From an uncultured Gemmatimonadota bacterium (GTDB lineage: Bacteria > JAAXHH01), in NCBI GenBank assembly GCA_951812955.1, contig OX638340.1, positions 576,001-640,000 on the forward strand: a stretch of DNA of 64,000 bases, read 5' to 3'. The notes beneath the pieces were generated by a model that saw only the letters and a program-made list of their open reading frames with translations, did no database searches and was not told the origin of the DNA. The position numbers were made by a program, and so were the translations under genes. How positions within the stretch are numbered: position 1 is the first letter of the stretch; every line of letters begins with the position of its first letter. This document shows positions 25,622 through 45,479 of the stretch, in pieces.

Positions 25622-25625
25622 GGCG

Positions 25626-26594
25626 TCAGTGAGCCGGTAGAATCTCCAGCGGGTAGTCTATGTATGCGTCTATGACAAGGTGATGGAGTTTTTTGCTGTC
25701 GGCATGTACCCGGTCGAGTACCGGTTGCCATACCGCTACGTCGTTCCGGCGTGCCGTTACGCATTTGCACAGCGTGTCGCCCAGTCCAAGCGCTTCCCGG
25801 CTCGAATTCGGCGCCGGACCGTGGCCTATGGCGCGCAAAACTTCGGCGGCCGAATCGACGGAACGGCGGATCGAAGCAGGAAGCAGGCCATCTGTTACGA
25901 GCAGATCCAGCACCTGGCCGGGCTGGACCACCACGCTGTAGGTATGCACGTAGGCGTCGAATGCGTGAAACGCGTGCAGCAGGTTCGCCCAGTCCGCGTC
26001 GAAGGATTCGTCCTGCCGGCCGTGATCGGCGATCTGCGCGAGCATGACCGCGGCGGAGAGCTGCACCCTTTCGATATATCTACCCAGCTGAATGAAATGC
26101 CAGCCTTCGTCGCGGTACATGGTGGCGTCGGTCACGCCGGCAAACGTGTTGATTTCCACTGAAGTGCCGGCGTAAAACGACTCGGGGGTCGTCTTCCAGA
26201 TTTCCTGGATGTTCAGCTTCTGCAGGTGCAGATAGGCCGTGTTTAATGAAAGCCACATCTCCGCGCTGATGTAGTTGCGGACCTGCCTGGCGTTTTCCCT
26301 TGCGTACACGAAACAATTCCAGATGGAATCCGGATTCGTGGGCTCGAAGGTAAGATGGTCGGCAAGGGTGTACGAATCAGCGAGTGTGTAGTCATCACTG
26401 CGGAAGGCTTCAAGTGTGCCCGCGGGCGGCGCCTGGTTCATGCTGCGGTAAACCCGGTTCCAGCCGAAGTGGATTTCCCTCAGCGGACGATCCACGAGCG
26501 TTTCCACCTGCAGTTGCATCAAACGACACAGGTGCGCCGCACGTTCCAGGTATCTCCCCATCCAATAAAGACCTTGAGCGCTTCTGGACAGCAT
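25626..26594 (-). CDS. alpha-E domain protein (DUF403)
   Basis: 'MLSRSAQGLYWMGRYLERAAH' is the hallmark N-terminus of the alpha-E family. All-helical composition. Confidence 0.8.
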   Translation of the reverse strand: MLSRSAQGLYWMGRYLERAAHLCRLMQLQVETLVDRPLREIHFGWNRVYRSMNQAPPAGTLEAFRSDDYTLADSYTLADHLTFEPTNPDSIWNCFVYARENARQVRNYISAEMWLSLNTAYLHLQKLNIQEIWKTTPESFYAGTSVEINTFAGVTDATMYRDEGWHFIQLGRYIERVQLSAAVMLAQIADHGRQDESFDADWANLLHAFHAFDAYVHTYSVVVQPGQVLDLLVTDGLLPASIRRSVDSAAEVLRAIGHGPAPNSSREALGLGDTLCKCVTARRNDVAVWQPVLDRVHADSKKLHHLVIDAYIDYPLEILPAH

Positions 26595-30788: not shown

Positions 30789-31678
30789 CCGGTAAGGGAC
30801 GTGGCATCCGAACGGCCATCGTCGCGCTCGTGCTGGCGGCGATCGTTTACGACTGTTTCTATGTGATCAACGAAACCCAGCAGGGGGTCCTGACGAACTT
30901 CGGCCGGATTTCGCCTCCGGTGAAGCAGCCCGGACTACATGTCAAGTGGCCCCGACCGATTTCAAGAGTCTACAAGGTGGACCGGAGGCTGCAGACACTC
31001 ACCGACGTGTCCCATGAGTTGATTACCGAAGATCAGAAGAACATCCTGATCAGCGGCTACCTGCTCTGGCGCATCGTAGACCCAATCCTGTATGTCGAGG
31101 CGATACGCACGGGCGCCAATGCAGCCGAACGTCTGCGGGATCTCTACCTTTCGAGCAGTGGGATCGTGATCAGTAACAAGGCCCGTGATGCATTCATCAG
31201 CCTTGGGCTGGAACACGAAGACCTGCACGAAGCGGCCCGTGACATCCTGAGCAGTGTCGCCCCGATTGCCAGTACCAACTATGGTATCGAGGTGCTGAAA
31301 GCCGGTATCATCGAATACACGCTGCCCATGGAAAACCGCCCGGCCGTGATCCAGCGTATGATATCGGAGCGCGCGCGCATCGCGGCCCGGTACCGCAGCG
31401 AGGGCGAGGAGATGGCCATCCGCATCGAAGCGCTGGCAATAAACGAACATGAGAAGCTTATGGCGGAGGCGCACGCGGAAGCCACGGCCATACTCGGTGA
31501 GGCCGAAGCGGAAGCGATGGCTTTGCTGGGCAGGGCTTACCGGAGGGACCCGGCGTTCTACCGGTTCATCCGGGCCCTTGACAGTTATGATCTGATTATC
31601 GACAAAAACACGACCCTTATGTTGCCGGCCGACAACGAACTGTTCAGATACCTGGACAGCAGAACGGTTCCCAGGTAG
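30785..31678 (+). CDS. HflC-like SPFH-domain protein
   Basis: ATGA start/stop overlap with the preceding gene and an AGGAGG RBS. N-terminal TM, then 'QQGVLTNFGRISPPVKQPGLHVKWP' band-7 start. Confidence 0.8.
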   Translation: MTGKGRGIRTAIVALVLAAIVYDCFYVINETQQGVLTNFGRISPPVKQPGLHVKWPRPISRVYKVDRRLQTLTDVSHELITEDQKNILISGYLLWRIVDPILYVEAIRTGANAAERLRDLYLSSSGIVISNKARDAFISLGLEHEDLHEAARDILSSVAPIASTNYGIEVLKAGIIEYTLPMENRPAVIQRMISERARIAARYRSEGEEMAIRIEALAINEHEKLMAEAHAEATAILGEAEAEAMALLGRAYRRDPAFYRFIRALDSYDLIIDKNTTLMLPADNELFRYLDSRTVPR

Positions 31679-31695
31679 AGCGAGATCTCAAACCC

Positions 31696-33033
31696 ATGAC
31701 GAACGAAAAGCGACCTTTACCTTACAGCACGCGCGTAATCTATGCCATGTTCGATTGGGCGCGCACCTACGGCTGGAACCGGCTGTTCTGGAGCGTGATC
31801 GCCTTTTCCATCGTGGCCGTGCTGGCCAGCGGGTTTTATATCATAAAGAAAGAAGAGCAGGGCGTCCTCGTTCGTTTCGGCAAGGTGGTGGACGAGAACC
31901 TTGGTCCGGGCATTCATTACTGCGTTCCGTTCATATACGAAACCCACATACGCAAGGTGAAGCGCATCGTCCGTGTCTCTATCGTCAGCGAAGGGACGGC
32001 TGGGGATACGCACGTCACGCTGCTGTCCGGCGACACGAACCTTGTGGAGGTGGATGTGGCCGTGCAGTACAAGATAGACAACCTGCGAAACTATCTCTTT
32101 GCGGTTTCGGACCCGACGATGTTGATGACCATGATCGTACGGGAAGAAATGGTCAATATCGTGGGGCAGAATTTCATCGACCTTATACTCACGTCTAACC
32201 GGAACATCATCGAACGTCATCTCCACGACTTCCTCGCCGGACGTCTCGAAACGATTGACATCGGTATCGAACTCGTCGACCTGAACATCCTGGACATCCG
32301 CCCCATCGAAGAGACCGTAGAGGCCTTCCGGGACGTCAACGATGCCATTTCCGAGCGCATGCAGTCCATCAGCAACGCCAACCTGCGCAGGGAGAAACTG
32401 GTCGCCCGCACGAAGGGCCAGACGGAAGCGATTGTCATGGATGCGAAAGCCACGGCGAGAGAACGCGTTCTGCAGGCCGAAAGCAGTGCCGGCGCATTCT
32501 CGAAACTGCTAGACGAATACGCCAAGCAACCGGCCCAGGTGGGCATTACCCGTTACTGGCAGCGGATGCGAACGATTTTCGCCGAAGCGAACCTGGCCGC
32601 GGTTAATCCCGGCAACGACGCGAATATCGAAGTCAACCTGGTAGACAGCGGCACGGCGTTGACGCCGGTGGAAATGGCTTTCGATTCGCCGGAAGCGTTG
32701 TCGGCCGCCGGCCCCGATTCGCTGGACAGGCCGGTTTATTCGACCTTGCCCCCGGATATTCATCGATATGAGAACATCGACAGGGACGGTTTCCTGATCG
32801 AAGGCAGATTCCATAGCAGGAACACCGAACGGGATCACCTTCCCGTCGCCAGGCCTCGATCGCTCATTTTCGACACGCCTTCCATCTTCAGCCATGGACA
32901 CGTGGCGACAAGCAGCACGGACACGGCGAATCAATCAGGCGAGAAGGCCATGGTCGATACCATGCACGACGAAGAAAGCGAAGAAGAATCTAAAGAGGGC
33001 ACGGAAGGGAGCCAAAGTGATCCGAAGCAATAA
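31696..33033 (+). CDS. HflK-like SPFH-domain protein
   Basis: N-terminal TM then 'EEQGVLVRFGKVVDENLGPGIHYCVPFI' band-7 core. Long coiled coil and an acidic C-terminal tail ('DEESEEESKEGTEGSQSD'). Confidence 0.8.
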   Translation: MTNEKRPLPYSTRVIYAMFDWARTYGWNRLFWSVIAFSIVAVLASGFYIIKKEEQGVLVRFGKVVDENLGPGIHYCVPFIYETHIRKVKRIVRVSIVSEGTAGDTHVTLLSGDTNLVEVDVAVQYKIDNLRNYLFAVSDPTMLMTMIVREEMVNIVGQNFIDLILTSNRNIIERHLHDFLAGRLETIDIGIELVDLNILDIRPIEETVEAFRDVNDAISERMQSISNANLRREKLVARTKGQTEAIVMDAKATARERVLQAESSAGAFSKLLDEYAKQPAQVGITRYWQRMRTIFAEANLAAVNPGNDANIEVNLVDSGTALTPVEMAFDSPEALSAAGPDSLDRPVYSTLPPDIHRYENIDRDGFLIEGRFHSRNTERDHLPVARPRSLIFDTPSIFSHGHVATSSTDTANQSGEKAMVDTMHDEESEEESKEGTEGSQSDPKQ

Positions 33034-34180
33034 ATCGCCCGGTCTTGCCTCGCTGGCAGCCGCCATTTTCATCACATTGCTGGCACACCCCTTGCCGGCC
33101 AGGGCGGAAACAGGCATATCCTCGGATGCCATCGTATTCGGTCAAAGCGCATGCTTTACGGGTCCCAACCGGAATCTGGGACTGTACTACAGGGCAGGCA
33201 TTCTTTCCGCATTCGAGGAACGGAACCGAGAGGGCGGGATCAACGGAAGGACGTTAAGGCTGCTTTCGCTGGATGATGGATATGAGCCGGAACAGGCCGC
33301 AGCGAACGCGGAGCGGTTTGCGGCGGAAAATGACGTCTTCGCGGTAATCGGCGGCGTGGGGACGCCGACTGCAAAGCGCATCGCCCCCGTTCTCCGCTCA
33401 GCCGACATACCCTTCGTCGGTCCTTTCACTGGCGCGGATTTCCTGCGTAATTTCGACCGGTTCCCCAACGTCATCAACCTCCGGGCCGCGTACCTGGATG
33501 AAGTCGTGACCATGGTTGATTATATCGTAAATGATCTGGGAAAGAACCGGTTCGGCGTCATCTACCAGGACGACGCCTTTGGACGCTCTGTACTTCGAGA
33601 CTTCCAGATTGCGCTCAACGCCCATGACCTGCCAATCCTTGCAAAGACCGCCCATTCCCGGAACACCCACGCGGTACACGCGGGGTTGTTTATGATCTCC
33701 AAGGCGGACCTCGATGCCATTCTGATTGTGGGATCGTATGCCGCAAACTCTGAGATCATCAACCTGTCCCACTCCCTGGGTCATGACTACATCGTTGCGA
33801 ATCTTTCTTTTGTCCTTTCCCACGAACTGAAGAAGCTGGTCGAAAACCATTCGAACAAAATCCTGGTGACCGAGGTAATACCGGATCCGAACAGCACTTC
33901 CAGCCTGGTAGTCCAGCGTTTCCTGGACGCGTTGCGGCCGGAATACGGAGAGGCCGAGACTGTCACGGCCCTGGTGAACGAAGTGGCCCTGGAAGGCTAC
34001 ATCCTCGGACGTTTCGTAATTGATGTGCTGGAGCGCATGGAAGGCGTTTTGACACGGGAACAATTCATGAACGTCGCGCTGTCTCCCGATAAAGTCATGA
34101 TCGACGACTGGACCCTGGAGTTCGCGCCCGGTACGAATACGGGGTCAAGATACATCCGGCTTACCAATCTGGGCGAATAG
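33017..34180 (+). CDS. type-1 periplasmic binding protein (Leu/Ile/Val-binding, Peripla_BP_6-like), orphan (no ABC permease or ATPase adjacent)
   Basis: GTG start with a GGGAG RBS, overlapping the hflK-like stop by 17 nt. Signal peptide '...AHPLPARA|ET'. 'LDDGYEP', 'AVIGGVGTPTA' and 'PFVGPFTGADFLR' are family boxes. Confidence 0.7.
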   Translation: MIRSNKSPGLASLAAAIFITLLAHPLPARAETGISSDAIVFGQSACFTGPNRNLGLYYRAGILSAFEERNREGGINGRTLRLLSLDDGYEPEQAAANAERFAAENDVFAVIGGVGTPTAKRIAPVLRSADIPFVGPFTGADFLRNFDRFPNVINLRAAYLDEVVTMVDYIVNDLGKNRFGVIYQDDAFGRSVLRDFQIALNAHDLPILAKTAHSRNTHAVHAGLFMISKADLDAILIVGSYAANSEIINLSHSLGHDYIVANLSFVLSHELKKLVENHSNKILVTEVIPDPNSTSSLVVQRFLDALRPEYGEAETVTALVNEVALEGYILGRFVIDVLERMEGVLTREQFMNVALSPDKVMIDDWTLEFAPGTNTGSRYIRLTNLGE

Positions 34181-34204
34181 CAACCTTTACACGAGGACTG
34201 ACCT

Positions 34205-34693
34205 GTGAAGAAGGTGGATGAGTTTACGGTCGAGGAAATCGGCGAGGAGTGGTTGCGCGAGCTTTACAAGGTCGTCGCGCTCCGGCGCGGTACCATGTTC
34301 AGGATGATTACTGAATCGACCCGTCTTCTCTTGTTCGGTAACGCGGGTGGCGCGGCGCTGATCATCGGCTTCATGAGCGCGGCAACGGGCGACCAGGCGT
34401 CCTCCTACCACTGGTTCAGCTTGTTTTCACTGCTCTCGTTCGCGCTAGGCACCCTTGCCTCCGCCCTGACGATGATCCTGGTGGCCGTAGTCTCGGTAAA
34501 AGAAGCCCACGGCGCCGAGAACGCGCTGAAACGTTTCGTCGATGGAGAAATCAACCGGTCACAGGTCATGTTCACCGTTGAAGAGCAAACCTTCCGTCTC
34601 GCCGATTCGGCCACCGTATCGGGTATTGTGAGTGCACTGGGGTTCATGGTGGGCGGGTTGGTCACGATAGCACTGCTTACGATTTTCTTCTAA
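34205..34693 (+). CDS. hypothetical small membrane protein
   Basis: GTG start. 162 aa with 3-4 predicted TM helices. No family recognised. Confidence 0.4.
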   Translation: MKKVDEFTVEEIGEEWLRELYKVVALRRGTMFRMITESTRLLLFGNAGGAALIIGFMSAATGDQASSYHWFSLFSLLSFALGTLASALTMILVAVVSVKEAHGAENALKRFVDGEINRSQVMFTVEEQTFRLADSATVSGIVSALGFMVGGLVTIALLTIFF

Positions 34694-34766
34694 ATCGGCA
34701 CGCCGCAGTATAGCATACGTCCTCGCAGGAACATACACGCACATAGATGGTTAGGACGCTTCCGCT

Positions 34767-35642
34767 GTGTTGAATGATATTGTATTGCTTCTCCTGACCT
34801 ACTCGGCGGCGATCTTTGCCGTATCCCTTCTGGGCGGCAAACTTTCGGCCATCGTCACCATGACCCATTTCCGCACGCAACTGGTCATGAGTCTCGTGGC
34901 GGGGTTTCTGCTGGGCGTCGCCATGTACCACCTCCTGTTGCACAGCCTGGAGGATATCCCCGGACCGTATGCCGGTGAAATCGCCGTGGGGTGTGCGGTA
35001 CTTGGCGTCATCATGATTATCGTGCTGCTGCGAATATTCCGGTTTCATCAACACGAATTCGATCACGAAGCAGTGGAGACGCCGGACCAGCATGGCCACC
35101 ACGATCATCATGGTTCGGTAAACGTCAACCCCCGCAGCGTGTTCGGTGTCGCCACGGGTCTCGGGCTGCACACGGTAACCGAAGGTATCGCCCTCGGCGC
35201 GAGCATGCGTATCGGTTTGATTCATGAAGGGGAAACGATTCTTGTCGGCCTGGGGGTATTTCTGGCGATCATGCTGCATAAGCCGTTGGACGCGTACTCC
35301 ATTATAGGATTGATGAGAGTGTCGGGCTACGGCGACCGGGCTTGTACGTTGACTAACGTCGGTTTCGCCCTGTTGTGTCCGCTCATTACGATATTGACCT
35401 ACCTTGGCGTCGGCGTGTTGAGTGAACTCAACGAGCTGCATGTCGTGGGATACATCATGGCCTTCGCCGCCGGAGTCTTTCTGTGCATCTCCCTGAGCGA
35501 TCTGCTGCCCGAGATACAGTTTCACACTCACGACCGCGGAATACTCGCCGTCGCCTTCCTCATCGGGATCGGTCTCGCCTACGCCCTGTTCTATTTCGAA
35601 TCCGACACCATGCATGGGCTGGAGACGCTGGACACCCATTAG
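34767..35642 (+). CDS. ZIP-family divalent metal transporter (ZupT-like)
   Basis: GTG start. His-rich loop 'HQHEFDHEAVETPDQHGHHDHHG'. 'GLHTVTEGIALGAS' and '...HKPLDAY...' match ZIP signature helices. Confidence 0.8.
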   Translation: MLNDIVLLLLTYSAAIFAVSLLGGKLSAIVTMTHFRTQLVMSLVAGFLLGVAMYHLLLHSLEDIPGPYAGEIAVGCAVLGVIMIIVLLRIFRFHQHEFDHEAVETPDQHGHHDHHGSVNVNPRSVFGVATGLGLHTVTEGIALGASMRIGLIHEGETILVGLGVFLAIMLHKPLDAYSIIGLMRVSGYGDRACTLTNVGFALLCPLITILTYLGVGVLSELNELHVVGYIMAFAAGVFLCISLSDLLPEIQFHTHDRGILAVAFLIGIGLAYALFYFESDTMHGLETLDTH

Positions 35643-35669
35643 CGTTCCCCCGCACTGCGAGTACTGGAG

Positions 35670-37898
35670 ATGACGACAAACTCCACGCAAGCGCAGCACT
35701 TCGACGTGGATACCGAAACCCGCGTATTCCACGTAGAGGGCATGACCTGCAGCGCGTGTTCCGCGCGGGTTGAGAAAATCCTTTCCGATGTCCCGGGTGT
35801 CGCCGCCGCCCACGTAAACCTTGCCCTTGAACGTGCGACACTTACAGTCAGGCCAACCCTGGATGTTGACACGCTGGCCGGGCCCGTGGCCGATGCCGGA
35901 TACAGGCTGACTCCCGTACAGGATGATCGATACGAACCTGAAATGGCACGCGGTCAGGCAAGCCGGGATCGTGTCGCCATGATCACCGCGATCATCGTGA
36001 CCTCCCCCTTTCTTCTGCAGATGCTGAGCAGACTGCTGCAAAGCTGGACCGGCATCGAATGGCATATGCCGGTCTACGCGGAAGCGCTGGCGGCTACTGT
36101 TCTGCAGATCGGTATCGGCGCCCGTTATTACCGGAGCGCTTTTCACGCGTTGCGCGGCGGCGGCGCGAACATGGACGTCCTGGTGGCCCTGGGCACGTCG
36201 TCCGCCTTCGCATACAGCTGGTACCTGGTGATCAGTCAGGGTTCCGGCGCGTCGGGGCAACTCTACTTCGAAGCCTCGGCGATCATCATTACTCTCGTGC
36301 TCGTCGGCAAGCACATCGAAACCCGTGCGCGGCGAAGCGCGGGCCGTGCGATACGCGAGCTGCTCGCCATCCGGCCGGTTACCGCGCAGATACGAACGGC
36401 GGACGGTACGGAGTGGGAAATGCCGGTGCACGCTTTGAAGGTGGGTGACGTCGTGATCTGCCGCCCCGGCGACCGGGTAGCCGTGGACGGCGTCGTGCTG
36501 CGGGGAGAGGCCGAAGTCGACGAGGCCCTCATCACCGGCGAGAGCGTACCCGTTCCGAAAAGCCCTGCCGACACCGCGATTGCCGGATCGTTGAATATCA
36601 ACGGCTTCATGGAAATCGAGGCCCGAGCCGTCGGAAGTGATTCGACCCTGGGCCGGGTGATCCGCCTGGTCGAAAACGCCCAGGCCGCCAAACCAGCCAT
36701 CCAGCGCCTGGTGGATCGAATCAGCGGCGTATTCGTACCTGTTGTCGTAGGCCTGGCCGTGATCACTTTTGCCGGGTGGATCCTCGCAGGGGGCGATCTT
36801 GAAACTGCTTTGATAAATGCCGTTTCCGTCCTCGTCATCGCCTGTCCCTGCGCGCTGGGACTGGCGACACCGACGGCGATCGTGGCCGGCGCCGGAGCGG
36901 CGGCCCGGGCAGGTATCCTGGTTAAGGACATCGAATCCCTGGAACAGGCTCACGGGCTGACTCACATCGTATTCGACAAGACGGGAACGCTGACCGAAGG
37001 CAGGTCAGTCCTCGCGTCCCTGGTTCCCCTGGCCGACCGAGGCGAAGAGGAGTTGCTTTCAATCGCCGCGGGGCTGCAGCAGGGCAGTGAGCATCCCTTC
37101 GCCAGGGCATTCAAGTTGGCCGCGGCCGGACGGAGCGTGTCACCCGCCGGGGTTGAACGATTCAGAAGCGTGGTGGCGCGCGGCGTCGAGGGCGAAGTCG
37201 AAGGGACGCGTTACCTGCTCGGCAACCGAAGACTCTTCCACGAGGCCTGCGGGGATACGCCACCGCCAGATTCCCCGCAATCCGGCGGCGTGTCCGCGGT
37301 CTGGCTGGCCGCCCGAGGAGATGCCGGATGCGAATACCTGGCTCGCTTCGATCTCGTCGATGCATTACGCGCCGACGCGGCTGAAGTGGTTGACAGGCTC
37401 AGGAAGCTCGGGGTAAGGATCTTGCTCGTATCGGGCGATGCGGAATCCGTAGTGGCGCAGATCGGCAGCGCGGCGGGTGTCGACGAATCGTACGGCGGCG
37501 CCACGCCGGAAGACAAGGAGCGTATCGTCGGACGATTGACGGAGAGCGGGGCGAAGGTCTGCATGGTCGGCGACGGGATCAACGACGCGCCGGCCCTCGC
37601 CCGCGCAACCGTGGGTATCGCCATGGGTTCCGGTACGGACGTGGCGATGGAAACGGCAGCGATCACGCTGATGAGACCCGAACCGGTCCTGGTGGCCGGC
37701 GCCATCGACGTGAGTCGAAGGACAATCCGGAAAATAAAGCAGAATCTGTTCTGGGCGTTTATCTACAACGTAATCGGACTTCCGCTGGCCGCAACGGGAT
37801 TCCTCTTCCCGGCGCTCGCCGCGGCCATGATGGCCTGCTCCAGCATCAGCGTCGTGCTCAACTCTATGACGCTCCGCGCATGGCGGCCCGATTCGTAA
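35670..37898 (+). CDS. heavy-metal translocating P1B-type ATPase (Cu+-type, CopA-like)
   Basis: N-terminal HMA 'GMTCSACSARVE'. TM6 'CPC', 'DKTGTLT' and 'VGDGINDAPAL'. TM7/8 'YN...MACSS', resembling the Cu+ subgroup signature. Confidence 0.85.
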   Translation: MTTNSTQAQHFDVDTETRVFHVEGMTCSACSARVEKILSDVPGVAAAHVNLALERATLTVRPTLDVDTLAGPVADAGYRLTPVQDDRYEPEMARGQASRDRVAMITAIIVTSPFLLQMLSRLLQSWTGIEWHMPVYAEALAATVLQIGIGARYYRSAFHALRGGGANMDVLVALGTSSAFAYSWYLVISQGSGASGQLYFEASAIIITLVLVGKHIETRARRSAGRAIRELLAIRPVTAQIRTADGTEWEMPVHALKVGDVVICRPGDRVAVDGVVLRGEAEVDEALITGESVPVPKSPADTAIAGSLNINGFMEIEARAVGSDSTLGRVIRLVENAQAAKPAIQRLVDRISGVFVPVVVGLAVITFAGWILAGGDLETALINAVSVLVIACPCALGLATPTAIVAGAGAAARAGILVKDIESLEQAHGLTHIVFDKTGTLTEGRSVLASLVPLADRGEEELLSIAAGLQQGSEHPFARAFKLAAAGRSVSPAGVERFRSVVARGVEGEVEGTRYLLGNRRLFHEACGDTPPPDSPQSGGVSAVWLAARGDAGCEYLARFDLVDALRADAAEVVDRLRKLGVRILLVSGDAESVVAQIGSAAGVDESYGGATPEDKERIVGRLTESGAKVCMVGDGINDAPALARATVGIAMGSGTDVAMETAAITLMRPEPVLVAGAIDVSRRTIRKIKQNLFWAFIYNVIGLPLAATGFLFPALAAAMMACSSISVVLNSMTLRAWRPDS

Positions 37899-37959: not shown

Positions 37960-40116
37960 CTAGGAGGATTCCTGCGGGGCTACGGCAGGTTCGAACGGAA
38001 GGCTAATGGCCATCTCGGTGTACTCCCCCGGTTCGGAATCCACCTCGATGTTACCCCCGTGCTCGCGGACGATATCGTTGGAGAGCGCCAGACCGAGGCC
38101 TGTGCCCTGGTCGGTAGGCTTGGTGGTAAAAAAGGGATTGAAGATCTTCTCCCGCACGTGGGGCGGTATCCCCTTGCCATTGTCCTTTATGCGCACGACG
38201 ATATGATCTTCCTCGCGGCGGGTGGACAGCCAGATCGCGGGTACGTATCCGCTTTCCGTATCCGGGTCTTCTCTTTTCTCGTTGGTCGCATGGCAGGCAT
38301 TGTTCACCATATTCAGAAACACACGGGCCATTTCCTGCGAAACGATCTCAATCTTTCCGAGATCGGGGTCGAAGTCCTCGTTGATTTCGAGTTGAAAATC
38401 CGGGTTGGATGCCCTGGCGGCGTGGTACGCCAGCCGGGCATGTTCTTCCAGTAACGCGTTTACGTCCGTGGACTGCTTGTCTCCCGATCCGCGCCCCATC
38501 TGCAACATGTCCCGCACGATCCGGTTGGCCCGTTCGCCGTGTTCCCTGATCCGGCGCAGATTATCCGTAAGATCACCGCCGATTTCCCGGATGAGATCGT
38601 TCTGCGCTTCGTCGAGCGAACCGCCGCCTTCAGGCAGTTCTTCATGCAGTTCCTCCAGCAGTTCTTCCGACGACTCCGCGAAGTTTTTTACGAAGTTCAG
38701 CGGGTTCTGGATTTCGTGGGCAACGCCTGCAGTTAGTTCGCCGAGGGCCGCCAGCTTTTCCCGCATGACGATCTGGTTCTGCGCCCGCTGCAGTTCGCCC
38801 AACGTTTCTTCCAGTTTGTCGTTCTTGCCCCGCAATTCCTCCGCGAGTTTTTCCACGAGGTTCAGCCGTTGCGCTTCGATCGAATGCAACCTGAACACTT
38901 CAAGCGCCGAGGCCATGTCCGCCACCTCGTCGCGGCCGTCCAGCTCCACTTTTTGTTTCAAGTCGCCCCCCGCCATGCGCCGCATGTGTTCGGACAGAAA
39001 ACCCAGGCGACGCAGCAGGACTTTTCCCACGAACAACCAGGCGATCAGCAAAGCGCCAATCAGGCTGACCGCGTTCAGAGCGAGCAGGAGCTGTCTTCCC
39101 ACCTGGATCGTCCGGGTCGACGCGACCGTCGCGGCCTGGGTGCTTGTCTGCGCCGAGTTTACGAGATTTTCCACCTCAGCAACCAGATCGACCGCGATAT
39201 TCCGATTGTTCTCTATCAGTGCTCGCTGCTGGTCAAGGAGTTCCAGATCTTCCGCACGAATCTGAAATATCTGCTCGTTTCCGCTTCCCAGTTCAAACAA
39301 TTGAGCGAATACCGGTTCGAGCCTCTGTCTCAGTGAAGACGTACCCAGGCCGGCGAGACTTCTTTCCACTCCCCCGCTGGCCGATTCGAACCGTTCCAGC
39401 AAGGGCTCTATCCTGTCGGCGTCGACGAGATTGAAGACATTCGACAGGATCCGGGTACTGACAGTCGCCTCGGTCTGCAATTCAGCGAGGTGGCGGTACC
39501 GCTGAAGTTCCAGCTCGGAAAGATACTCCGAACGGGGCGCCGCGGGCTCGTCGATGTTCCGGTAACCCGTCGTCGTGTAAAACAGCTGGTCGTCCAGGGC
39601 CGGGACAAGAATACCGGTCAGTTCGGATTGCAGCCGCCCCAGTTCCCTTCGTAACAACTGGCTTTGTTCTTCAAGGATGAAACGGCGCGCCACAGACTCC
39701 TCGATCATCCTGATGTTGGACATCAGCGTATTCCCGCTTTCGCTGATGCGTTGAAAGCGCTCGTTTTCCATGCTGTACGCGGCGATTGCCTCCAACTGAT
39801 CCGCGAAACTCTCCCGCTCGTTGGCAATACTCGCGGTCACGGCTTCGAAAGCCTCGGGGGTCTCCGCGGCCGCCAGACGAGGAGCGGCCGCCGCCAGCGT
39901 TCCGCTCCGCTGCGCCACCCCGAAGGCCGCGGCGATTTCGGGTACGGCTACCTCGTTCACTTCGCGCTGTGCTTCACCTACCTCGTTGAAGGCGAACCAC
40001 GCCACCAGACTTGCGAACATGGTGATCGCTACCGCAGTCCCGATACCCAGGTACAGCTGCCCCGAAATTCGGGACGGGCCCTTGTCGTATAACCACAGCA
40101 GCCACTTTTTGATCAT
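37960..40116 (-). CDS. sensor histidine kinase (2 TM, ~300-aa periplasmic domain, HAMP, HisKA, HATPase)
   Basis: 'LTAGVAHEIQNPLNFVKNF' H-box. 'DNGKGIP', 'FFTTKPTDQGTGLGLALSNDIVREHGG' G-boxes. Start overlaps the stop of the upstream binding-protein gene (ATGA). Confidence 0.85.
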   Translation of the reverse strand: MIKKWLLWLYDKGPSRISGQLYLGIGTAVAITMFASLVAWFAFNEVGEAQREVNEVAVPEIAAAFGVAQRSGTLAAAAPRLAAAETPEAFEAVTASIANERESFADQLEAIAAYSMENERFQRISESGNTLMSNIRMIEESVARRFILEEQSQLLRRELGRLQSELTGILVPALDDQLFYTTTGYRNIDEPAAPRSEYLSELELQRYRHLAELQTEATVSTRILSNVFNLVDADRIEPLLERFESASGGVERSLAGLGTSSLRQRLEPVFAQLFELGSGNEQIFQIRAEDLELLDQQRALIENNRNIAVDLVAEVENLVNSAQTSTQAATVASTRTIQVGRQLLLALNAVSLIGALLIAWLFVGKVLLRRLGFLSEHMRRMAGGDLKQKVELDGRDEVADMASALEVFRLHSIEAQRLNLVEKLAEELRGKNDKLEETLGELQRAQNQIVMREKLAALGELTAGVAHEIQNPLNFVKNFAESSEELLEELHEELPEGGGSLDEAQNDLIREIGGDLTDNLRRIREHGERANRIVRDMLQMGRGSGDKQSTDVNALLEEHARLAYHAARASNPDFQLEINEDFDPDLGKIEIVSQEMARVFLNMVNNACHATNEKREDPDTESGYVPAIWLSTRREEDHIVVRIKDNGKGIPPHVREKIFNPFFTTKPTDQGTGLGLALSNDIVREHGGNIEVDSEPGEYTEMAISLPFEPAVAPQESS

Positions 40117-41327
40117 GGCATTACGTCCCGGAGGGTATTGATGGGATGGTAACGGCCATCCTTTCCGATCACCGTGAGGAAAACGGCGTCGGAACCCTGG
40201 TTGTCCCCGGCTCCGAATTCAAGACGAAGACCGCCCATATCGATGGTCCCGGCCTGGTTCAGACTTTCCACGAGACAAGTCCGCCTTACGTCGGGACCGC
40301 AGCCTTCGAGCGCGGTGATGGCCAGTCTGCCCGCCAGGTATCCTTCGAAAGAAACGAATCCGGGTGTGGAGCCGGGCGCGTGCGCGGCGAGTGCGCGGCG
40401 ATACCGCACTGCAATGGCAATATTGCCGGCTGCAGGGAAGGGTACTACCTGGGAAACCAGTACACCCTGGCCATCGGGACCCAGCTCACCGGCCAGGGCG
40501 TTGCTTCCCACGAAGGAGATCGTCGCGAACACCGGGTTGAATCCCACGTGCCGCGCCCATGAGATGAGCGTAGCGACCGGATGGTACGCGCCGATGACGA
40601 CCACGGCGTCCGGCTTGCCGGCCTGCAGATCTAGCAGCCCCGCCTTGATCGCCGTGGTGTTCCGGGGATACACGCCGATCGCCACCGGATCCAGGTTCCT
40701 TCGATCCAGCGCTCGCCGCACACCCCGGTAACCCACCCGGCCGAAGGAATCGTTCTGGTACATCACGCCTATGCGCGTGATCCCCAGATCGCGCGAAAGG
40801 CGGTCGACGATTTCCTCGGTTTCCTGGAAATAGGAGGCGCGTAGATTGATGACGCCGGTTTCCGTGTTGTCCCTTAGGAAGATCGCGCCGGTAAATGGCG
40901 CGATATAGGGCACACCGGCCTGCGACGTGATGGGAACGGCCGAACGGGAAGTCGGCGTGCCGACCGCGCCGATCAGCGCGAATACGCCTTCGTCCTCAAT
41001 CAGCTTGCGCGTGTTTGCGATGGCGGCTTCGGGTTCGTAGGCGTCGTCGAGCGTAATGAGCGCAAGCCGCCGTCCATGTACGCCGCCCCTGCGGTTTGCT
41101 TCCTGGAAGGCCGCCTCGATGCCGAGGTTCATGTTGCGGCCGAGTTCCCTGGCAGGACCGCTGAACGCCGCCGACTGTCCGAACAGAATTTGTTCGTCCG
41201 TTACGCCGGGTTCTTCGATCTGGGAGGCGTTCGCGCCGCTGTGTGCTGGAATTAAAGCGGGAGAGAACGCCGTCGCACCAAGGGCGAGTAGTATGGCGAC
41301 CGCCCAGTGGTCACGCGTTCGTCTCAT
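40113..41327 (-). CDS. type-1 periplasmic binding protein (paralog of 33017..34180), coupled to the histidine kinase
   Basis: Signal peptide present. Shares 'ILFGQSAAFSGPARELG', 'LDDAYEP', 'ALIGAVGTPTS' and 'PFTGAIFLR' boxes with the other binding protein. 4-nt overlap with the kinase gene. Confidence 0.8.
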   Translation of the reverse strand: MRRTRDHWAVAILLALGATAFSPALIPAHSGANASQIEEPGVTDEQILFGQSAAFSGPARELGRNMNLGIEAAFQEANRRGGVHGRRLALITLDDAYEPEAAIANTRKLIEDEGVFALIGAVGTPTSRSAVPITSQAGVPYIAPFTGAIFLRDNTETGVINLRASYFQETEEIVDRLSRDLGITRIGVMYQNDSFGRVGYRGVRRALDRRNLDPVAIGVYPRNTTAIKAGLLDLQAGKPDAVVVIGAYHPVATLISWARHVGFNPVFATISFVGSNALAGELGPDGQGVLVSQVVPFPAAGNIAIAVRYRRALAAHAPGSTPGFVSFEGYLAGRLAITALEGCGPDVRRTCLVESLNQAGTIDMGGLRLEFGAGDNQGSDAVFLTVIGKDGRYHPINTLRDVMP

Positions 41328-41749
41328 CCATTTTCCTTCCGCTTGACGATCGTCAGGACGTTCTTGTCGTTTTCCCGGCGGTAGCTCAGTTCATCCATCA
41401 TGGTCCGAACCAGATAGATGCCGAGACCGCCGACGGGCCGGTCTTCAACCCCAGACTCGATATCCGGTTCCGGGGAGTCGGTAAGCGGGTTGAACGCCGG
41501 GCCTTCGTCCCGCAACTCGATGGTCAACGTTTCGGAATCGGAGTCCAGTACCACTTCGAATTCGTGTTCCGGGTCGTTGGCGTGGCCGTGGGTAACGATG
41601 TTGACGCCCAGTTCCTCAAGGACCAGCTTGACCTGGTACACCATGCCCGGCGGCCATTCTTCCGACTCGCCAAGTTCGTCCACGGCCTCGTAAATCCGTT
41701 CGAGTTGGTCCAGTCTGGTAGGCAGGCGAAGAGAGAGTTTTCTACGCAT
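41324..41749 (-). CDS. RsbW/SpoIIAB-like anti-sigma regulatory factor (GHKL Ser kinase)
   Basis: 141 aa with 'ELGVNIVTHG' (N-box) and 'DEGPAFNP...GGLGIYLVRTMMDE' (G-boxes). Confidence 0.7.
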   Translation of the reverse strand: MRRKLSLRLPTRLDQLERIYEAVDELGESEEWPPGMVYQVKLVLEELGVNIVTHGHANDPEHEFEVVLDSDSETLTIELRDEGPAFNPLTDSPEPDIESGVEDRPVGGLGIYLVRTMMDELSYRRENDKNVLTIVKRKENG

Positions 41750-41757
41750 GGGCGAAC

Positions 41758-42915
41758 CTAGCGTTGAAGCACGGTGACACAGGTTATATCATCCGACTGC
41801 GCCGTCTCCCCCGCGAAATCATGAACCGCTTTGAACACGGCCTTGTTCGCTTCTTCCGTGGTGGCGGGAGGGGAATCCGAGAATACCGCCTGCAGGCGAT
41901 CCATACCGAATTCCTCGCCGTCGGCGTTCATGGCTTCGGTAACTCCGTCCGTGTAGAGCACAAGCAAATCGCCGGGCGAGACCGAGATGGCAGACTGGCC
42001 AAACTCGACGCCGGGGAAGACCCCGAGGGCCATCCCGTCGGTTCCGGGGAGCAGGGTCGAAGAGCCATCGGGATGGACTACGAGCGGGGGATTGTGTCCT
42101 CCATTGGCGTAGTCGACCTGGCCGGTTTCGGGGGTGTACACCGCGTAGAACGTGGTGACGAACATAGCCGCTTCGTTTTCTTCAGTAAGGAGATCGTTGA
42201 CTTCCTTCAATACGGCGCCGGGATCCATGGCCCCGATTGCCGATCCCTTCAGCAGGGTCCGGCTCGACATCATGAACAGGGCCGCCGGCACGCCCTTGTC
42301 GGATACATCGGCGATGGCCAGGCCGATTCTACCGCCAGGCAAGGGAAAGACGTCGAAAAAATCGCCGCCGACTTCTCGGGCGGGCTCCATGTTCGCGAAG
42401 ATCGTGCAGTGATCGGAATCGGGAAACTCGGTCGGCAGAATCGACTGCTGCATCTTGCTGGCCACGTTCAGTTCGTTCTGCAGCCGAACCAGCTTATCCC
42501 GCGACTCCAGGGCTTCGCGCCATTCCTCCATGTTCTTCAGGGTGCGTTCGATGGTTACACGAAGGTCCTGGAAATCGATAGGCTTGGTAATGAAGTCGAA
42601 AGCACCCCGGTTCATGGCCGTCCGGATGTTCTTCATGTCCCCGTATGCGGATACCACGACGGCGCGGATGTCGGGGGCGATGTTCGGTATCTGCGCCAAC
42701 AGGGTCAGACCGTCCATCCTGGGCATGTTGATATCCGATAACACCATATCGATATCGGGGATCTCGCTCAGACGTTCCAGGGCTTCCACGCCGTTCTGGG
42801 CGAAAAACAGGGTGTATTGGCCGGAACGGACATCACGGCGCAATCGCTGACGCATGAGGTGTTCGAGATCCGGCTCATCGTCCACTACAAGGATTTTATA
42901 CGGTGTCTGCGTCAT
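41758..42915 (-). CDS. response-regulator receiver + PP2C/SpoIIE phosphatase (RsbU/HsbR-like)
   Basis: REC 'KILVVDDEP...DMVLSDINMPRMDG...FDFITKP'. PP2C 'GGDFFDVF...GLAIADVSDKGVPAAL...NGGHNPPLV...YTDGVTE'. Confidence 0.85.
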   Translation of the reverse strand: MTQTPYKILVVDDEPDLEHLMRQRLRRDVRSGQYTLFFAQNGVEALERLSEIPDIDMVLSDINMPRMDGLTLLAQIPNIAPDIRAVVVSAYGDMKNIRTAMNRGAFDFITKPIDFQDLRVTIERTLKNMEEWREALESRDKLVRLQNELNVASKMQQSILPTEFPDSDHCTIFANMEPAREVGGDFFDVFPLPGGRIGLAIADVSDKGVPAALFMMSSRTLLKGSAIGAMDPGAVLKEVNDLLTEENEAAMFVTTFYAVYTPETGQVDYANGGHNPPLVVHPDGSSTLLPGTDGMALGVFPGVEFGQSAISVSPGDLLVLYTDGVTEAMNADGEEFGMDRLQAVFSDSPPATTEEANKAVFKAVHDFAGETAQSDDITCVTVLQR

Positions 42916-43007
42916 CGCATCCCTGGACGCCGGCGCATCCGTTCGCTATCGACGCGCCCGGCATTTGAGCAGGTTTCTACCGTGAAGCGATCGGCCCGCA
43001 CGGCTAC

Positions 43008-43346
43008 TTACTGACCGATCTTATCCACGGCTTCCGCCTGGGTATCGTGGATGGAAATGATCTTGTCAAATCCGCTGATTTCGAAGACTTCACGGATCGG
43101 GTCCGACAGGGAGCACAGCGCGAAAGCGGCATTCCGCTTCTGAAGCAATCTAGCGATCAGCAGGATGACCCTCAGCCCGGCGCTGCTTATATAGGACAGC
43201 GCTCCGAAATCAAGCAACACCTTGCTGTCGTCTTCCGCAATGGCGCCGTTAAGCGCATCCTCGAATTCCCGGGCGTTCGCACCGTCGATTCGACCTTCAA
43301 CCTTCGCAATCAGTACCTCGTTTGCTCGGTCGACACTGATCTCCAT
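43008..43346 (-). CDS. STAS-domain anti-sigma-factor antagonist (RsbV/SpoIIAA/HsbA-like)
   Basis: 112 aa. 'LDFGALSYISSAGLRVIL' carries the conserved phosphorylatable Ser (underlined position: DFGALS-Y-I-S-S). Confidence 0.8.
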   Translation of the reverse strand: MEISVDRANEVLIAKVEGRIDGANAREFEDALNGAIAEDDSKVLLDFGALSYISSAGLRVILLIARLLQKRNAAFALCSLSDPIREVFEISGFDKIISIHDTQAEAVDKIGQ

Positions 43347-43485
43347 GAAACCATCCCCCTTTATCAGGTTTATAAAATCACCCTATTTGGCAAAAAGGCT
43401 TTATGTACTCCAATGGTAAAACTCGGTTGCGTATCCGGCAGGTGACCCATTGCCGGCCTGATCAATTCCCTGATACGGTACCTAC

Positions 43486-44277
43486 CTATCCCGAGGCGAG
43501 AATGGGATGCAACGGTCCACCGAACGGCTCGCCCGGTTTCAGTGTCTGGTCGCCTCCTGCGTCCCATCGGCCGTTGTAGTTCACGTATTCGGGAATATAG
43601 ATGATCGCCAGGGCTCTCCTGGGCGAATCGGTACGGTTCGATGTGGCGTAATGGAACGTGCATCCGTGATGAAAGGTGACGCCGCCTGCTTCCATTTCCA
43701 TTATGACGGGTTCAACCTCGTCATCGACGTCCGTACCTTCGATTTCTTTCAGTACGCTCGCACCCTCCGTACTCAAGGGCACGGGCGCCAGCCGGCCGTA
43801 TTGGTGCGAGCCTGGTATGAACTGCATGCAGCCGTTGTCTACAGTGACATCGTCCACGGCGATCCAGGCCGACAGCGCACCCACCTGCTCCATGGGCCAG
43901 TAAGGAGCGTCCTGATGCCAGTTGGTTTCCTTGCTCCGCTCGCCACCAGGCTTGATCAGTCCATGGTCATGGTAGATGACCAGGCGTTTGCACTTCGATA
44001 TCTTACGGGCGATCTCCGCCAGGCGCGCGTCAAAGGAATACTTGCGGATTACTTCGTGGTCCACCCACAGGTTGACCATCTGGTTGAATACGCGGTTGTA
44101 ATCCTCGTCCGTTTCACGCCCGCCGCCCAGTATGCGTTCCCTCTTCTCCGCTACCGTTTTGTCCAGCGCTTCTCTCAGTTCCGTCACTTCATCCTTCGAG
44201 AAGAACCTCGGAATCCGGAGATAACCATTCTCCTGAAAAAACTCAACCTCTTCGGCGCCAATGTGATTTGGATTCAT
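43486..44277 (-). CDS. phytanoyl-CoA dioxygenase (PhyH) family Fe(II)/2-oxoglutarate oxygenase
   Basis: 'WHQDAPYWP' (HxD) and '...FHHGCTFHYATSNRTDSPRRAL' (distal His, Arg). Confidence 0.75.
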   Translation of the reverse strand: MNPNHIGAEEVEFFQENGYLRIPRFFSKDEVTELREALDKTVAEKRERILGGGRETDEDYNRVFNQMVNLWVDHEVIRKYSFDARLAEIARKISKCKRLVIYHDHGLIKPGGERSKETNWHQDAPYWPMEQVGALSAWIAVDDVTVDNGCMQFIPGSHQYGRLAPVPLSTEGASVLKEIEGTDVDDEVEPVIMEMEAGGVTFHHGCTFHYATSNRTDSPRRALAIIYIPEYVNYNGRWDAGGDQTLKPGEPFGGPLHPILASG

Positions 44278-44501
44278 GTTAACGTAGAACCCGGGATTTA
44301 ATCGAATAAATCATATATAATCCTGGTCAACACAAATCAACAATAATAAACGTTTCAATGTCACAATCCGCACAAATCAAGTAATTTAACATTCGGTCTA
44401 TATTTATCAACCCTTTTCAAGTAGAAAGGGATATTTTACTTTATTGAACCGTACCGAAAACGCTTCGAATTTCGAATTCGTACCGCCGCAAGGAGCCGAC
44501 C

Positions 44502-45479
44502 ATGCCGCAAGACCGTTATCAAATCGGTGTCCAGGACTATATCGACTACCACCGGGATGGCTACCTGGTTGCCCGGGGACTCGTACCCGACACGGAAGTG
44601 GAGGAAATCCGCCGCCATACCGAGGAACTGATGCATGGCAGGATCATCATCGACGGTGTTGAGCCACCGCCGCCTGGCCTTACTCCCGAGCAGATGGGGC
44701 AGCACTGGCTGCGTATACACATGCTCCACCGGAAGCATGAACTGCATGAACGGTACCTGCTGCAACCCCGGATTCTGGATGTGCTAGAAGCCCTGATCGG
44801 TCCCGATGTGTCGGCGCTCCAGACCATGTTGTTTCTCAAGCCGCCGGGACGTGAGGGCCAGGGTTACCACCAGGACGCCTACTATATCCCCACCTATCCC
44901 GATACGCTGATCGGTTCGTGGCTGGCCGTGGATCCGGCGGATGAAGAGAATGGCTGCATGAAGGTCATACCGGGATCACACCATGAACCAATCTATCCGG
45001 ACGAAAACAAGCTGGGCCAAAACCATACCGACGGATCCATCGAGGATCTTGCCGTGATCGCGGGCGCCAGCGCGACGGATGAATCCGTGAACGGACTGAC
45101 GCCTGTCGCGGCAAAATACGGTGGCCGCGAGGTGGCTGCCTGCATGGCCCCGGGCGACGTCCTGTTCTTCCACAGCCATCTCCTGCACCGGTCGCACGCC
45201 AACCGGACGCAGACGCGTTTCCGCAGGGCCTTTGTAAGCCACTATTGTAACGCGAGGTCATTGGTGCCGTGGAACCACGGCGCCGAATTCGAGGGGACGA
45301 CCGCGAACAATCTCCATATCCTCGCCCGGGGAAATACTCACCTTGACTACGCGTTGCCGAAGTTCGGCACCCCGTGCGACGCGCTCAATCCCAGGGAGAC
45401 GGCCCGGGGTGTCCGCCCGGCGCGCATGATGGGCGGCATGCCTGCTTCGACCGTAAAGGGTGTTATGGTAACACGCTGA
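44502..45479 (+). CDS. phytanoyl-CoA dioxygenase (PhyH) family oxygenase, paralog
   Basis: 'YHQDAYYIP', 'GCMKVIPGSHH' and 'FFHSHLLHRSHANRTQTRFRRAF'. AAGGAG RBS. Confidence 0.75.
   Translation: MPQDRYQIGVQDYIDYHRDGYLVARGLVPDTEVEEIRRHTEELMHGRIIIDGVEPPPPGLTPEQMGQHWLRIHMLHRKHELHERYLLQPRILDVLEALIGPDVSALQTMLFLKPPGREGQGYHQDAYYIPTYPDTLIGSWLAVDPADEENGCMKVIPGSHHEPIYPDENKLGQNHTDGSIEDLAVIAGASATDESVNGLTPVAAKYGGREVAACMAPGDVLFFHSHLLHRSHANRTQTRFRRAFVSHYCNARSLVPWNHGAEFEGTTANNLHILARGNTHLDYALPKFGTPCDALNPRETARGVRPARMMGGMPASTVKGVMVTR

Follow-up and report, generated by a model that had tools for sequence, protein, structure and literature searches.

What drives a partner-switching module that has no sigma factor gene beside it, and on what does such a module act? 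The question is raised by five genes of an uncultured Gemmatimonadota bacterium, contained in a 64,000-nucleotide stretch of contig OX638340.1 (positions 576,001 to 640,000 of the forward strand; hereafter the window), which encode a STAS-domain protein, a phosphatase under a receiver domain (REC-PP2C), an RsbW-like serine kinase, a periplasmic binding protein and a membrane sensor histidine kinase. The answer preferred here, at a probability of roughly 70%, is that the five form one signalling unit, in which a two-component system dependent on a solute-binding protein determines the state of a partner switch based on serine phosphorylation. The cassette itself is a real, conserved operon-like unit, the parts of which all come from known families; the identities of the domains, the conserved catalytic residues, the coupling of the genes and the co-inheritance of all five are plain from the sequences. 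Its features are as follows.

43008..43346, minus strand: STAS-domain protein resembling anti-sigma-factor antagonists, 112 amino acids (Pfam STAS, 3.7e-21)
41758..42915, minus strand: response regulator with REC and PP2C/SpoIIE phosphatase domains, 385 amino acids (Pfam Response_reg, 2.8e-25; SpoIIE, 8.9e-54)
41324..41749, minus strand: GHKL serine kinase of anti-sigma-factor type, RsbW/SpoIIAB-like, 141 amino acids (Pfam HATPase_c_2, 4.1e-29, full length)
40113..41327, minus strand: extracytoplasmic type-1 solute-binding protein, 404 amino acids (Pfam Peripla_BP_6, 2.7e-53)
37960..40116, minus strand: membrane sensor histidine kinase, 718 amino acids (Pfam TorS_sensor_domain, HAMP, HisKA, HATPase_c)
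39097..39984, minus strand: periplasmic sensor domain of the histidine kinase, residues ~45-340, all-helical, a two-module four-helix bundle of TorS type; predicted docking site of the binding protein
43347..43485, minus strand: intergenic region of 139 nucleotides (nt) 5' of the STAS gene; possible promoter region of the cassette

The list of open reading frames (ORFs) and the sequence agree on five consecutive, co-oriented ORFs that read from 43346 to 37960 on the minus strand in the order STAS, REC-PP2C, RsbW-like kinase, binding protein, histidine kinase. A preliminary description of this DNA had given the same coordinates and the same orientation; it had also placed the three partner-switch genes just upstream of the binding protein and overlapped the start of the kinase gene with the stop of the binding-protein gene, and in these respects, as in all five domain assignments, which a Pfam scan bears out, it can be followed. 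Its parts list was right, but it overlooked the TorS-like sensor, the wide and apparently horizontal spread of the cassette and a recurrent ammonium-transporter neighbourhood. Two of the junctions are 4-nt ATGA overlaps: the kinase start ATG (40116-40114) lies over the binding-protein stop TGA (40115-40113), and the binding-protein start lies over the stop of the RsbW-like gene at 41327-41324. The remaining gaps are of 8 nt (REC-PP2C to RsbW-like) and 92 nt (STAS to REC-PP2C), and the base composition of the cassette is that of its surroundings. Such an arrangement goes well past what chance would give, since about 62 of 80 species-level loci show this gene order. At the 5' end of the unit, a consensus scan found no sigma-70-like site in 43347..43485, and its sole minus-strand promoter-like match, at 44410-44383, lies upstream of a PhyH gene; since the promoter and terminator scan returned sites no more numerous than in shuffled sequence, the operon boundaries are not established by it. 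Two divergent PhyH-family dioxygenase genes occupy 43486-45479, just upstream of the STAS gene, the first of them co-oriented with the cassette and 139 nt from it. They were considered as part of the unit and rejected, accompanying the cassette only in its two closest relatives (L002 and L003).

At the input end of the cassette, the histidine kinase runs from a first transmembrane helix (residues ~21-43) through a periplasmic sensor of TorS type to a second transmembrane helix (~343-365), which is followed by HAMP, a HisKA domain with the conserved phospho-acceptor H467 (codon 38718-38716) and HATPase_c. The Pfam TorS_sensor_domain profile is covered in its entirety (36.8 bits, against a cut-off of 27), and the NCBIfam TorS model TIGR02956 aligns to residues 17-447 with 178 bits, its cut-off being 676.5. 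Because this score is well under the equivalog cut-off, and because Pfam finds no REC or HPt domain in the protein, the kinase is not an orthologue of TorS. A search of the PDB with a profile built from 27 orthologous sensor domains returns the TorS sensors 3O1H and 3I9Y alone, at full length (E 2e-7), whereas a single-sequence phmmer search with the kinase did not reach TorS; the AlphaFold2 model has a predicted local distance difference test score (pLDDT) of ~90 over residues 60-320. In other words, the locus has the two-module four-helix-bundle sensor and the adjoining binding-protein gene of a TorS-type system, and has neither a binding protein of the TorT family (Peripla_BP_1) nor a hybrid kinase that passes the TorS equivalog score. 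Relatives of the kinase number 4283 in the protein database at E <= 1e-10. The TorS-like sensor subtype is uncommon, with only 394 of 1.84 billion cluster representatives matching at E <= 1e-3. What such a sensor may imply follows from TorS itself, a kinase that reads its ligand by way of the periplasmic binding protein TorT, which binds the TorS sensor (PMC8050422). Indeed, the TorS type is the sole histidine kinase sensor type that has been crystallised in complex with a binding protein.

The binding protein carries an N-terminal signal peptide, and its closest solved structure is 4KV7, a structural-genomics entry with a generic name (E 7.7e-69). Its orthologues in diderm hosts have a Sec-type signal peptide that leads directly into the conserved start GV(S/T)(D/E)xRILFGQSAAFSGPA; those of Chloroflexota and Acidimicrobiia have either a lipobox with a 30-40-residue tether rich in Pro, Thr and Ser or an N-terminal membrane anchor. 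To judge from these N-termini, the export signals appear to suit the envelope type of the host. No ATP-binding cassette (ABC) permease or ATPase genes adjoin the binding-protein gene in the window, nor are there any among the conserved neighbours in related loci, and the gene stands directly upstream of the histidine kinase in all 80 orthologous loci. Moreover, orthologues of 47-51% identity are found immediately upstream of chemoreceptors in four genera of cultured alphaproteobacteria, on a plasmid of Terrarubrum flagellatum (L083 3760-7106) and on plasmids of Phaeobacter inhibens DSM 17395, Ruegeria sp. TM1040 and Thioclava (L084 6941-10874; L085 6935-10861; L087 6986-11001). In Terrarubrum, the 51%-identical binding protein overlaps the chemoreceptor gene by 4 nt, and the periplasmic domain and HAMP of that chemoreceptor are homologous to residues 17-409 of the histidine kinase (E 7e-31). 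A chemoreceptor with a related sensor in Azospirillum lipoferum has no binding-protein gene adjoining it. These pairs constitute independent genomic evidence for an interaction between the binding protein and the sensor, and because the orthologues pair with chemoreceptors, not kinases, in the cultured alphaproteobacteria, the protein is a signalling solute-binding protein. Since the same pair serves different outputs, a kinase in one case and a chemoreceptor in the other, the binding protein and TorS-like sensor together form a portable input module. The earlier suggestion that the binding protein delivers a ligand to the kinase is in this way strongly supported, by the TorS-homologous sensor, the unbroken adjacency and the chemoreceptor-paired orthologues alike.

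On the output side, all three proteins retain the residues on which a partner switch depends. The STAS protein passes the NCBIfam model of the anti-sigma-antagonist superfamily (TIGR00377, 79.6 bits, cut-off 53.45). Its predicted phosphorylated serine, S55 (codon 43184-43182), aligns with the phosphorylatable serine of SpoIIAA (1TH8_B), a position that is alanine in the 1TID variant, and also with the equivalent serine of TM1442; the aspartate that precedes the phospho-serine is replaced by S54. At least 95% of 68 orthologues retain the stretch Y52-I-S-S-A-G57. In the response regulator, the receiver is N-terminal (Response_reg, residues 8-122) and the phosphatase C-terminal (SpoIIE, residues 193-381), with a helical linker at about residues 123-160 between them; a linker of this kind is the route by which sensor domains have been proposed to control PPM phosphatases generally (PMC12143880). 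The receiver residues D12, D13, D61 and K111, of which D61 (codon 42735-42733) is the acceptor, are conserved in 76 orthologues, as are the phosphatase motifs GGDFFD, ADVSDKG, YTDG and SDD. The best NCBIfam match of this protein is Pseudomonas RssB (117 bits, under its cut-off). The RsbW-like protein, for its part, aligns to Bacillus subtilis RsbW (6M36) and to SpoIIAB (1TH8), keeping E45, N50, H53, D81, G83 and G107-G-L-G, which are also conserved in its orthologues, and it scores far under the NCBIfam equivalog cut-offs for RsbW and SpoIIAB. It is encoded separately from the REC-PP2C protein, the two ORFs being divided by a stop codon and the 8-nt gap, and the same two ORFs are found in 73 orthologous loci. 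The single-domain STAS protein with a phosphorylatable serine in the (D/S)-S-x-G-L loop, the N, G1 and G2 boxes of a small GHKL kinase and the metal-binding aspartates of the PP2C domain that define an RsbV/RsbW/PP2C module are, then, all present; the cognate sigma gene in the same cluster, as in the classical Bacillus-type organisation, is absent. From the conservation of its catalytic and phospho-acceptor residues, the partner switch looks functional.

Some 37 kb from the cassette, the window holds a second SpoIIE/PP2C phosphatase, of 584 amino acids with an N-terminal GAF domain (2615-4369, minus strand). No STAS or RsbW-like gene lies beside it, and the window contains no second gene of either kind. 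As a second input phosphatase, it could act on the STAS protein of the cassette.

The extent to which the five genes are inherited together was followed in 80 species-level loci of the GTDB genome collection, which were selected from an alignment of homologues of the histidine kinase and the neighbours of which were scored by tblastn and HMM searches. The hosts belong to at least 10 phyla and include Chloroflexota (mostly Dehalococcoidia), Acidobacteriota, Gemmatimonadota and Latescibacterota, as well as Alpha- and Gammaproteobacteria, Acidimicrobiia, Rhodothermales, Spirochaetia and Binatia. The arrangements found are as follows.

Full order STAS, REC-PP2C, RsbW-like, binding protein, histidine kinase: about 62 of 80 loci
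STAS gene inverted and downstream of the histidine kinase: 4 of 80 loci
No STAS gene within 8 kb: 5 of 80 loci, all gammaproteobacterial
REC-PP2C, binding protein and histidine kinase only: 3 of 80 loci
Binding protein and histidine kinase only, no partner-switch gene within 8 kb: 2 of 80 loci (L038 and L074)
Loci cut by contig ends: 3 of 80

The REC-PP2C gene is thus in the same cluster as the binding-protein and kinase genes in 75 of the 77 untruncated loci. All five proteins are 50-70% identical across phyla, the RsbW-like protein being the least conserved (39-56%, compared with 59-75% for REC-PP2C). Taxonomy is not tracked by these values. The histidine kinase has a median identity of 0.52-0.60 within five of the six phylum-level groups compared and of 0.86 within the remaining one, made up of the three alphaproteobacterial loci; between groups, the median is 0.55. 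For 13 loci the nearest relative lies in another phylum-level group. The five proteins also agree in their pairwise distances, with correlations of r 0.47-0.77. The simplest reading of these relationships would be repeated horizontal transfer of the whole cassette. Many of the carriers are metagenome-assembled genomes (MAGs) with labels or taxon names such as the RHO and SB06xx bins, Langseth, SAR202 bin90 and Ca. Aldehydirespirator (among L002-L081). These names we take, on a partial check of the literature, to be associated with marine sponge-microbiome studies. One carrier family includes a sponge-symbiotic lineage (PMC11706023) and another is mainly free-living (PMC12625764).

What accompanies the cassette in these genomes offers a hint of its possible role. 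By clustering of flanking ORFs and by Pfam, an ammonium transporter (Amt) gene occurs within 8 kb in 25 of the 80 loci, distributed over two clades, upstream or downstream of the cassette and in either orientation; in L004 it starts 36 nt after the histidine kinase gene. The PII gene adjoins Amt in only 2-3 of the Amt-bearing loci. A trio of genes for CP_ATPgrasp_2, Alpha-E and transglutaminase proteins recurs directly beside the cassette in 22, 19 and 14 of the 80 loci, respectively, often with Amt inserted between its genes, and is also found in the window at 24704-28028, on the same (minus) strand as the cassette. Across phyla, the Amt proteins are 70-81% identical, the trio 66-76% and the neighbours overall 66-81%. 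The literature yielded no known function for the ATP-grasp trio; in marine metagenomes, its domains co-vary with urea-metabolism domains (PMC3597751). The neighbours suggest a nitrogen-related role, which is treated here as a lead.

Assembled into a mechanism, the parts would work as follows, each contact and each transfer of phosphate being drawn from homology, gene coupling and co-inheritance. The secreted Peripla_BP_6 protein would bind a small solute outside the cytoplasm and dock on the TorS-like periplasmic domain of the histidine kinase, as TorT does on TorS, altering the autophosphorylation of H467 through HAMP. From the kinase the phosphoryl group would move to D61 in the only receiver that the cassette encodes, that of the REC-PP2C protein, and the activity of the phosphatase would change by way of the helical linker. 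The sign of that change could be either, since phosphorylation of the receiver activates RsbY of Bacillus cereus (PMC9912610) and inhibits RsfR of Mycobacterium smegmatis, lowering its phosphatase activity (PMC10950880). The RsbW-like kinase would phosphorylate S55 of the STAS protein, the PP2C domain would remove the phosphate, and the unphosphorylated STAS protein would bind the RsbW-like protein. By this switch a target encoded elsewhere would be released or engaged, whether a distant sigma factor or a protein of another kind; non-sigma targets have been proposed for HsbA, SypA and RbaV (PMC6482189, PMC12826045, PMC3999984).

The logic of a histidine kinase acting through a REC-PP2C protein on a STAS protein has precedents (PMC10950880, PMC4574943), and it is by comparison with these that the cassette is best placed. 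As in two-component-controlled partner switches of the RsbKY and RsfSR type, the kinase and REC-PP2C genes are here genetically linked, on the same strand and in the same cluster. In the RsfS-RsfR-RsfB-RsbW1-SigF system of M. smegmatis, the REC-PP2C protein is likewise a protein of its own and is phosphorylated by a membrane histidine kinase, the extracytoplasmic sensor of which is helical; it dephosphorylates a STAS antagonist and is opposed by a separate RsbW-type kinase. Unlike the present case, RsfS senses through a CHASE3 domain, with no binding protein, and the target, SigF, is known, whereas the five genes here form one compact operon (PMC10950880). The RsbK-RsbY-RsbV-RsbW-SigB system of B. 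cereus likewise takes its two-component input through a stand-alone REC-PP2C protein, RsbY, with separate RsbW and RsbV, but RsbK is a cytoplasm-facing hybrid under the methyltransferase RsbM, sigB is in the cluster and there is no binding protein (PMC4574943, PMC9912610). RbaV, RbaW and RbaY of Rhodobacter capsulatus and the three-gene VWY operon of Rhodopseudomonas palustris share separate STAS, RsbW-like and REC-PP2C proteins without a sigma gene nearby, yet neither kinase nor binding protein is encoded alongside, the gene order differs and, in R. capsulatus, rbaY is unlinked from rbaVW (PMC3999984).

For the input, the nearest counterpart is TorT-TorS of Escherichia coli and Vibrio parahaemolyticus (PDB 3O1H), in which TorT, a Peripla_BP_1 protein, binds trimethylamine N-oxide and TorS, a hybrid with REC and HPt domains, acts on the DNA-binding TorR (PMC8050422); in the present cassette, by contrast, the binding protein is of the Peripla_BP_6 family, the kinase is not a hybrid and the receiver belongs to a phosphatase. 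Chemoreceptors that depend on a binding protein, such as BasT with BasB (PMC8050422), and the uncharacterised pairs of Terrarubrum, Phaeobacter, Ruegeria and Thioclava, in which the binding protein upstream of the receptor is orthologous (47-51%), resemble the input as well, with the Terrarubrum receptor sharing the sensor domain type, but their output is chemotaxis signalling and not a kinase with a partner switch. In the 2021 review table of characterised receptors dependent on solute-binding proteins, the sole Peripla_BP_6 entry found is BasB, with its chemoreceptor partner (PMC8050422).

The preliminary description had looked to a different precedent, regarding the locus as a fused HsbR-type protein split into two genes. 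Its account of the HsbR and CrsR systems is accurate (PMC6482189): in HptB-HsbR-HsbA of Pseudomonas aeruginosa and CrsR-CrsA of Shewanella oneidensis, as in SypE-SypA of Vibrio fischeri, receiver-controlled PP2C and GHKL activities set the phosphorylation of a STAS protein, the targets of which are not encoded beside the switch (PMC6482189, PMC10120452). In those systems, however, the REC, PP2C and kinase domains reside in one polypeptide with input from an Hpt phosphorelay, whereas here there are two proteins, a classical kinase in the operon and, by Pfam, no Hpt protein among the ORFs of the window. Nothing found points to descent from a fusion, and because separate REC-PP2C, RsbW and STAS proteins are an established arrangement, RsbKY, RsfSR and RbaVWY are closer analogues than a split HsbR. 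TciK/TciR of Vogesella (PMC12826045) was also considered as an analogue and rejected, being a REC-RsbW fusion of different architecture. A search of the literature found no description of the cassette. What is established is the logic from kinase to REC-PP2C to STAS and RsbW; what is new is the combination of a Peripla_BP_6 protein with a TorS-like sensor as its input, together with its mobility across phyla.

Several observations weigh against the reading of the cassette as a single signalling unit with a binding-protein input and a nitrogen-related setting. The binding protein is of the Peripla_BP_6 family and TorT of the Peripla_BP_1 family, and therefore the docking geometry of the TorT-TorS complex cannot simply be transferred. 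The Phaeobacter (roseobacter) chemoreceptor that stands beside an orthologous binding protein has no detectable similarity to the sensor domain of the histidine kinase, and hence the binding protein may dock on more than one type of receptor. A homologue in Ralstonia (37% identity; the family of PDB 3LOP) is an orphan gene. The two halves of the cassette are separable, as the five gammaproteobacterial loci without a STAS gene and the two loci with only the binding protein and kinase attest. With regard to nitrogen, there is no Amt gene in the window, the trio in the window is 10 kb from the cassette, and the associations with neighbours may be inflated, since flanking genes travel with the cassette.

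Among the alternatives, the one that retains most force concerns the last step only, and is compatible with the rest of the preferred explanation. It holds that this is an ordinary RsbV-RsbW-sigma module, in which the RsbW-like protein is a true anti-sigma factor for a SigB- or SigF-type sigma factor encoded elsewhere in the genome, with a stress or stationary-phase output. Such an output is a substantial possibility, if somewhat short of an even chance. The resemblance of the RsbW-like protein to RsbW and SpoIIAB, with its motifs kept, and the passage of the STAS protein over the anti-sigma-antagonist cut-off are what it would predict, and the equivalent kinase domain in Shewanella and Pseudomonas binds RpoS, which is not encoded adjacently (PMC6482189). 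The RsbW-like protein is, moreover, the least conserved of the five, as expected if it were adapting to host-specific partners. Set against these points is the absence of a sigma gene, which the preliminary description had noted for the window and which extends well beyond it. Pfam finds no Sigma70 or Sigma54 domain in any of the major ORFs of the 64-kb window, and phmmer searches of its six-frame ORFs of at least 80 amino acids with RpoD regions 2-4 and with RpoE found nothing. The same searches were run on 81 related loci, where the RpoD query proved effective by recovering a genuine rpoD (in L042) at 447 bits; the RpoE query had no comparable positive match, and coverage of sigma factors of the extracytoplasmic-function type rests mainly on the Pfam scans. 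No SigB/F-type sigma gene was found within 8 kb on either side of the cassette in the 80 related loci, and in 79 of them no sigma gene was found there. The sole exception is a housekeeping rpoD in a gammaproteobacterial MAG of Ca. Azotimanducaceae (L042 3034-6186), co-directional with the REC-PP2C gene and ending 40 nt before it, with no STAS gene nearby. Its position may be due to chance or may hint at a relevance of the primary sigma factor, and can be counted in favour of a sigma output. Further against such an output, a cassette that brings no sigma gene along as it moves among at least 10 phyla would have to meet a compatible sigma factor in every recipient, and in RbaVWY, the closest sigma-less analogue, the search for a cognate sigma factor failed (PMC3999984).

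A second alternative has the output acting without any sigma factor, the STAS or RsbW-like protein working directly on a target in nitrogen acquisition, for which Amt and the ATP-grasp trio are the candidates. The recurrence of Amt in two clades, in varied positions and orientations and as close as 36 nt to the kinase gene, the presence of the trio in 14-22 loci and in the window, and the rarity of PII beside Amt speak for it. There are, besides, documented non-sigma targets of STAS proteins, HsbA acting on FlgM and HsbD (PMC6482189), and RbaV being the apparent determinant of output (PMC3999984). The argument is nonetheless one of guilt by association, 55 of the 80 loci and the window having no Amt nearby, and with Amt genes 70-81% identical across phyla the link may reflect co-transfer of an island and not regulation; on balance this output is rather unlikely. 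Still less probable is a wider reading in which the cassette is a mobile 'plug-in' sensor of unrelated marine bacteria, many apparently sponge-associated, its binding protein reading a nitrogen compound derived from the habitat or host and its switch acting on a universal non-sigma target tied to ammonium uptake (Amt or the trio). If true, it would explain how the cassette functions after transfer across phyla without an accompanying sigma factor.

A more radical alternative would dissolve the unit into two independent systems that happen to lie side by side, the binding protein and histidine kinase signalling to a DNA-binding regulator elsewhere and the trio of switch proteins being fed by another kinase. 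The two loci with the binding protein and kinase alone, the pairing of the binding protein with chemoreceptors in cultured alphaproteobacteria and the REC-PP2C homologues that stand beside unrelated kinases on Bacteroidota plasmids would all agree with it; unrelated kinase-phosphatase clusters from Bacteroidota and other sources were all that a search of plasmids for the REC-PP2C protein brought up. Yet the halves are joined here by a 4-nt overlap and, over the various phyla, lie side by side in about 70 of the 77 untruncated loci, and the three reduced loci keep exactly REC-PP2C, binding protein and kinase. The kinase, moreover, is not a hybrid, the cassette has no receiver besides that of the REC-PP2C protein and its surroundings show no second response-regulator gene that recurs, all of which makes two unconnected systems improbable. 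Finally, that the binding protein is the capture subunit of an ABC importer located elsewhere and the kinase senses its ligand directly can be set aside as very improbable: Peripla_BP_6 proteins are mostly transporter components and the window has a second such gene at 32894-34180, but no permease or ATPase genes adjoin here or among the conserved neighbours, the binding-protein and kinase genes are translationally coupled and adjacent in every locus, in other bacteria the protein is paired with receptors of another class, and the sensor is of the one type crystallised with a binding protein.

The second Peripla_BP_6 gene just mentioned, an orphan 36% identical to that of the cassette, heads a plus-strand row at 32894-37898, in which it is followed by genes for a 162-residue protein that belongs to no known family, for a ZIP metal transporter and for a P-type ATPase with an HMA domain; this binding-protein copy is also present in the relative L003. 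Another plus-strand row, at 28452-33033, begins with a 778-residue fusion of an ArsP-type permease and an SPFH/Band_7 domain and continues with two more SPFH-domain genes. In a Dehalococcoidia MAG (L034 6833-7998), the binding-protein gene of the cassette is in two pieces in different frames, by a frameshift or an assembly error.

For the preferred reading, in which all five proteins act in one pathway, the consequences are of some general interest. Partner switches without an adjacent sigma factor are common, but few of their signals and targets have been identified. Here the switch is tied to a soluble and easily purified binding protein, such that the input signal could be within reach of a simple ligand screen, and the plasmid-borne pairs of binding protein and chemoreceptor in Terrarubrum, Phaeobacter, Ruegeria and Thioclava belong to culturable carriers that could be used to find the ligand. 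The whole chain of ligand, kinase, phosphatase and STAS protein could be reconstituted from five small genes, and the kinase would be the first with a TorS-type sensor shown to have a Peripla_BP_6 partner. The spread of the cassette makes one ask which shared cue and target would benefit cells so unlike one another. With identities of 50-70%, which do not follow taxonomy, over at least 10 phyla, it would represent a clear case of a complete signalling pathway that moves horizontally.

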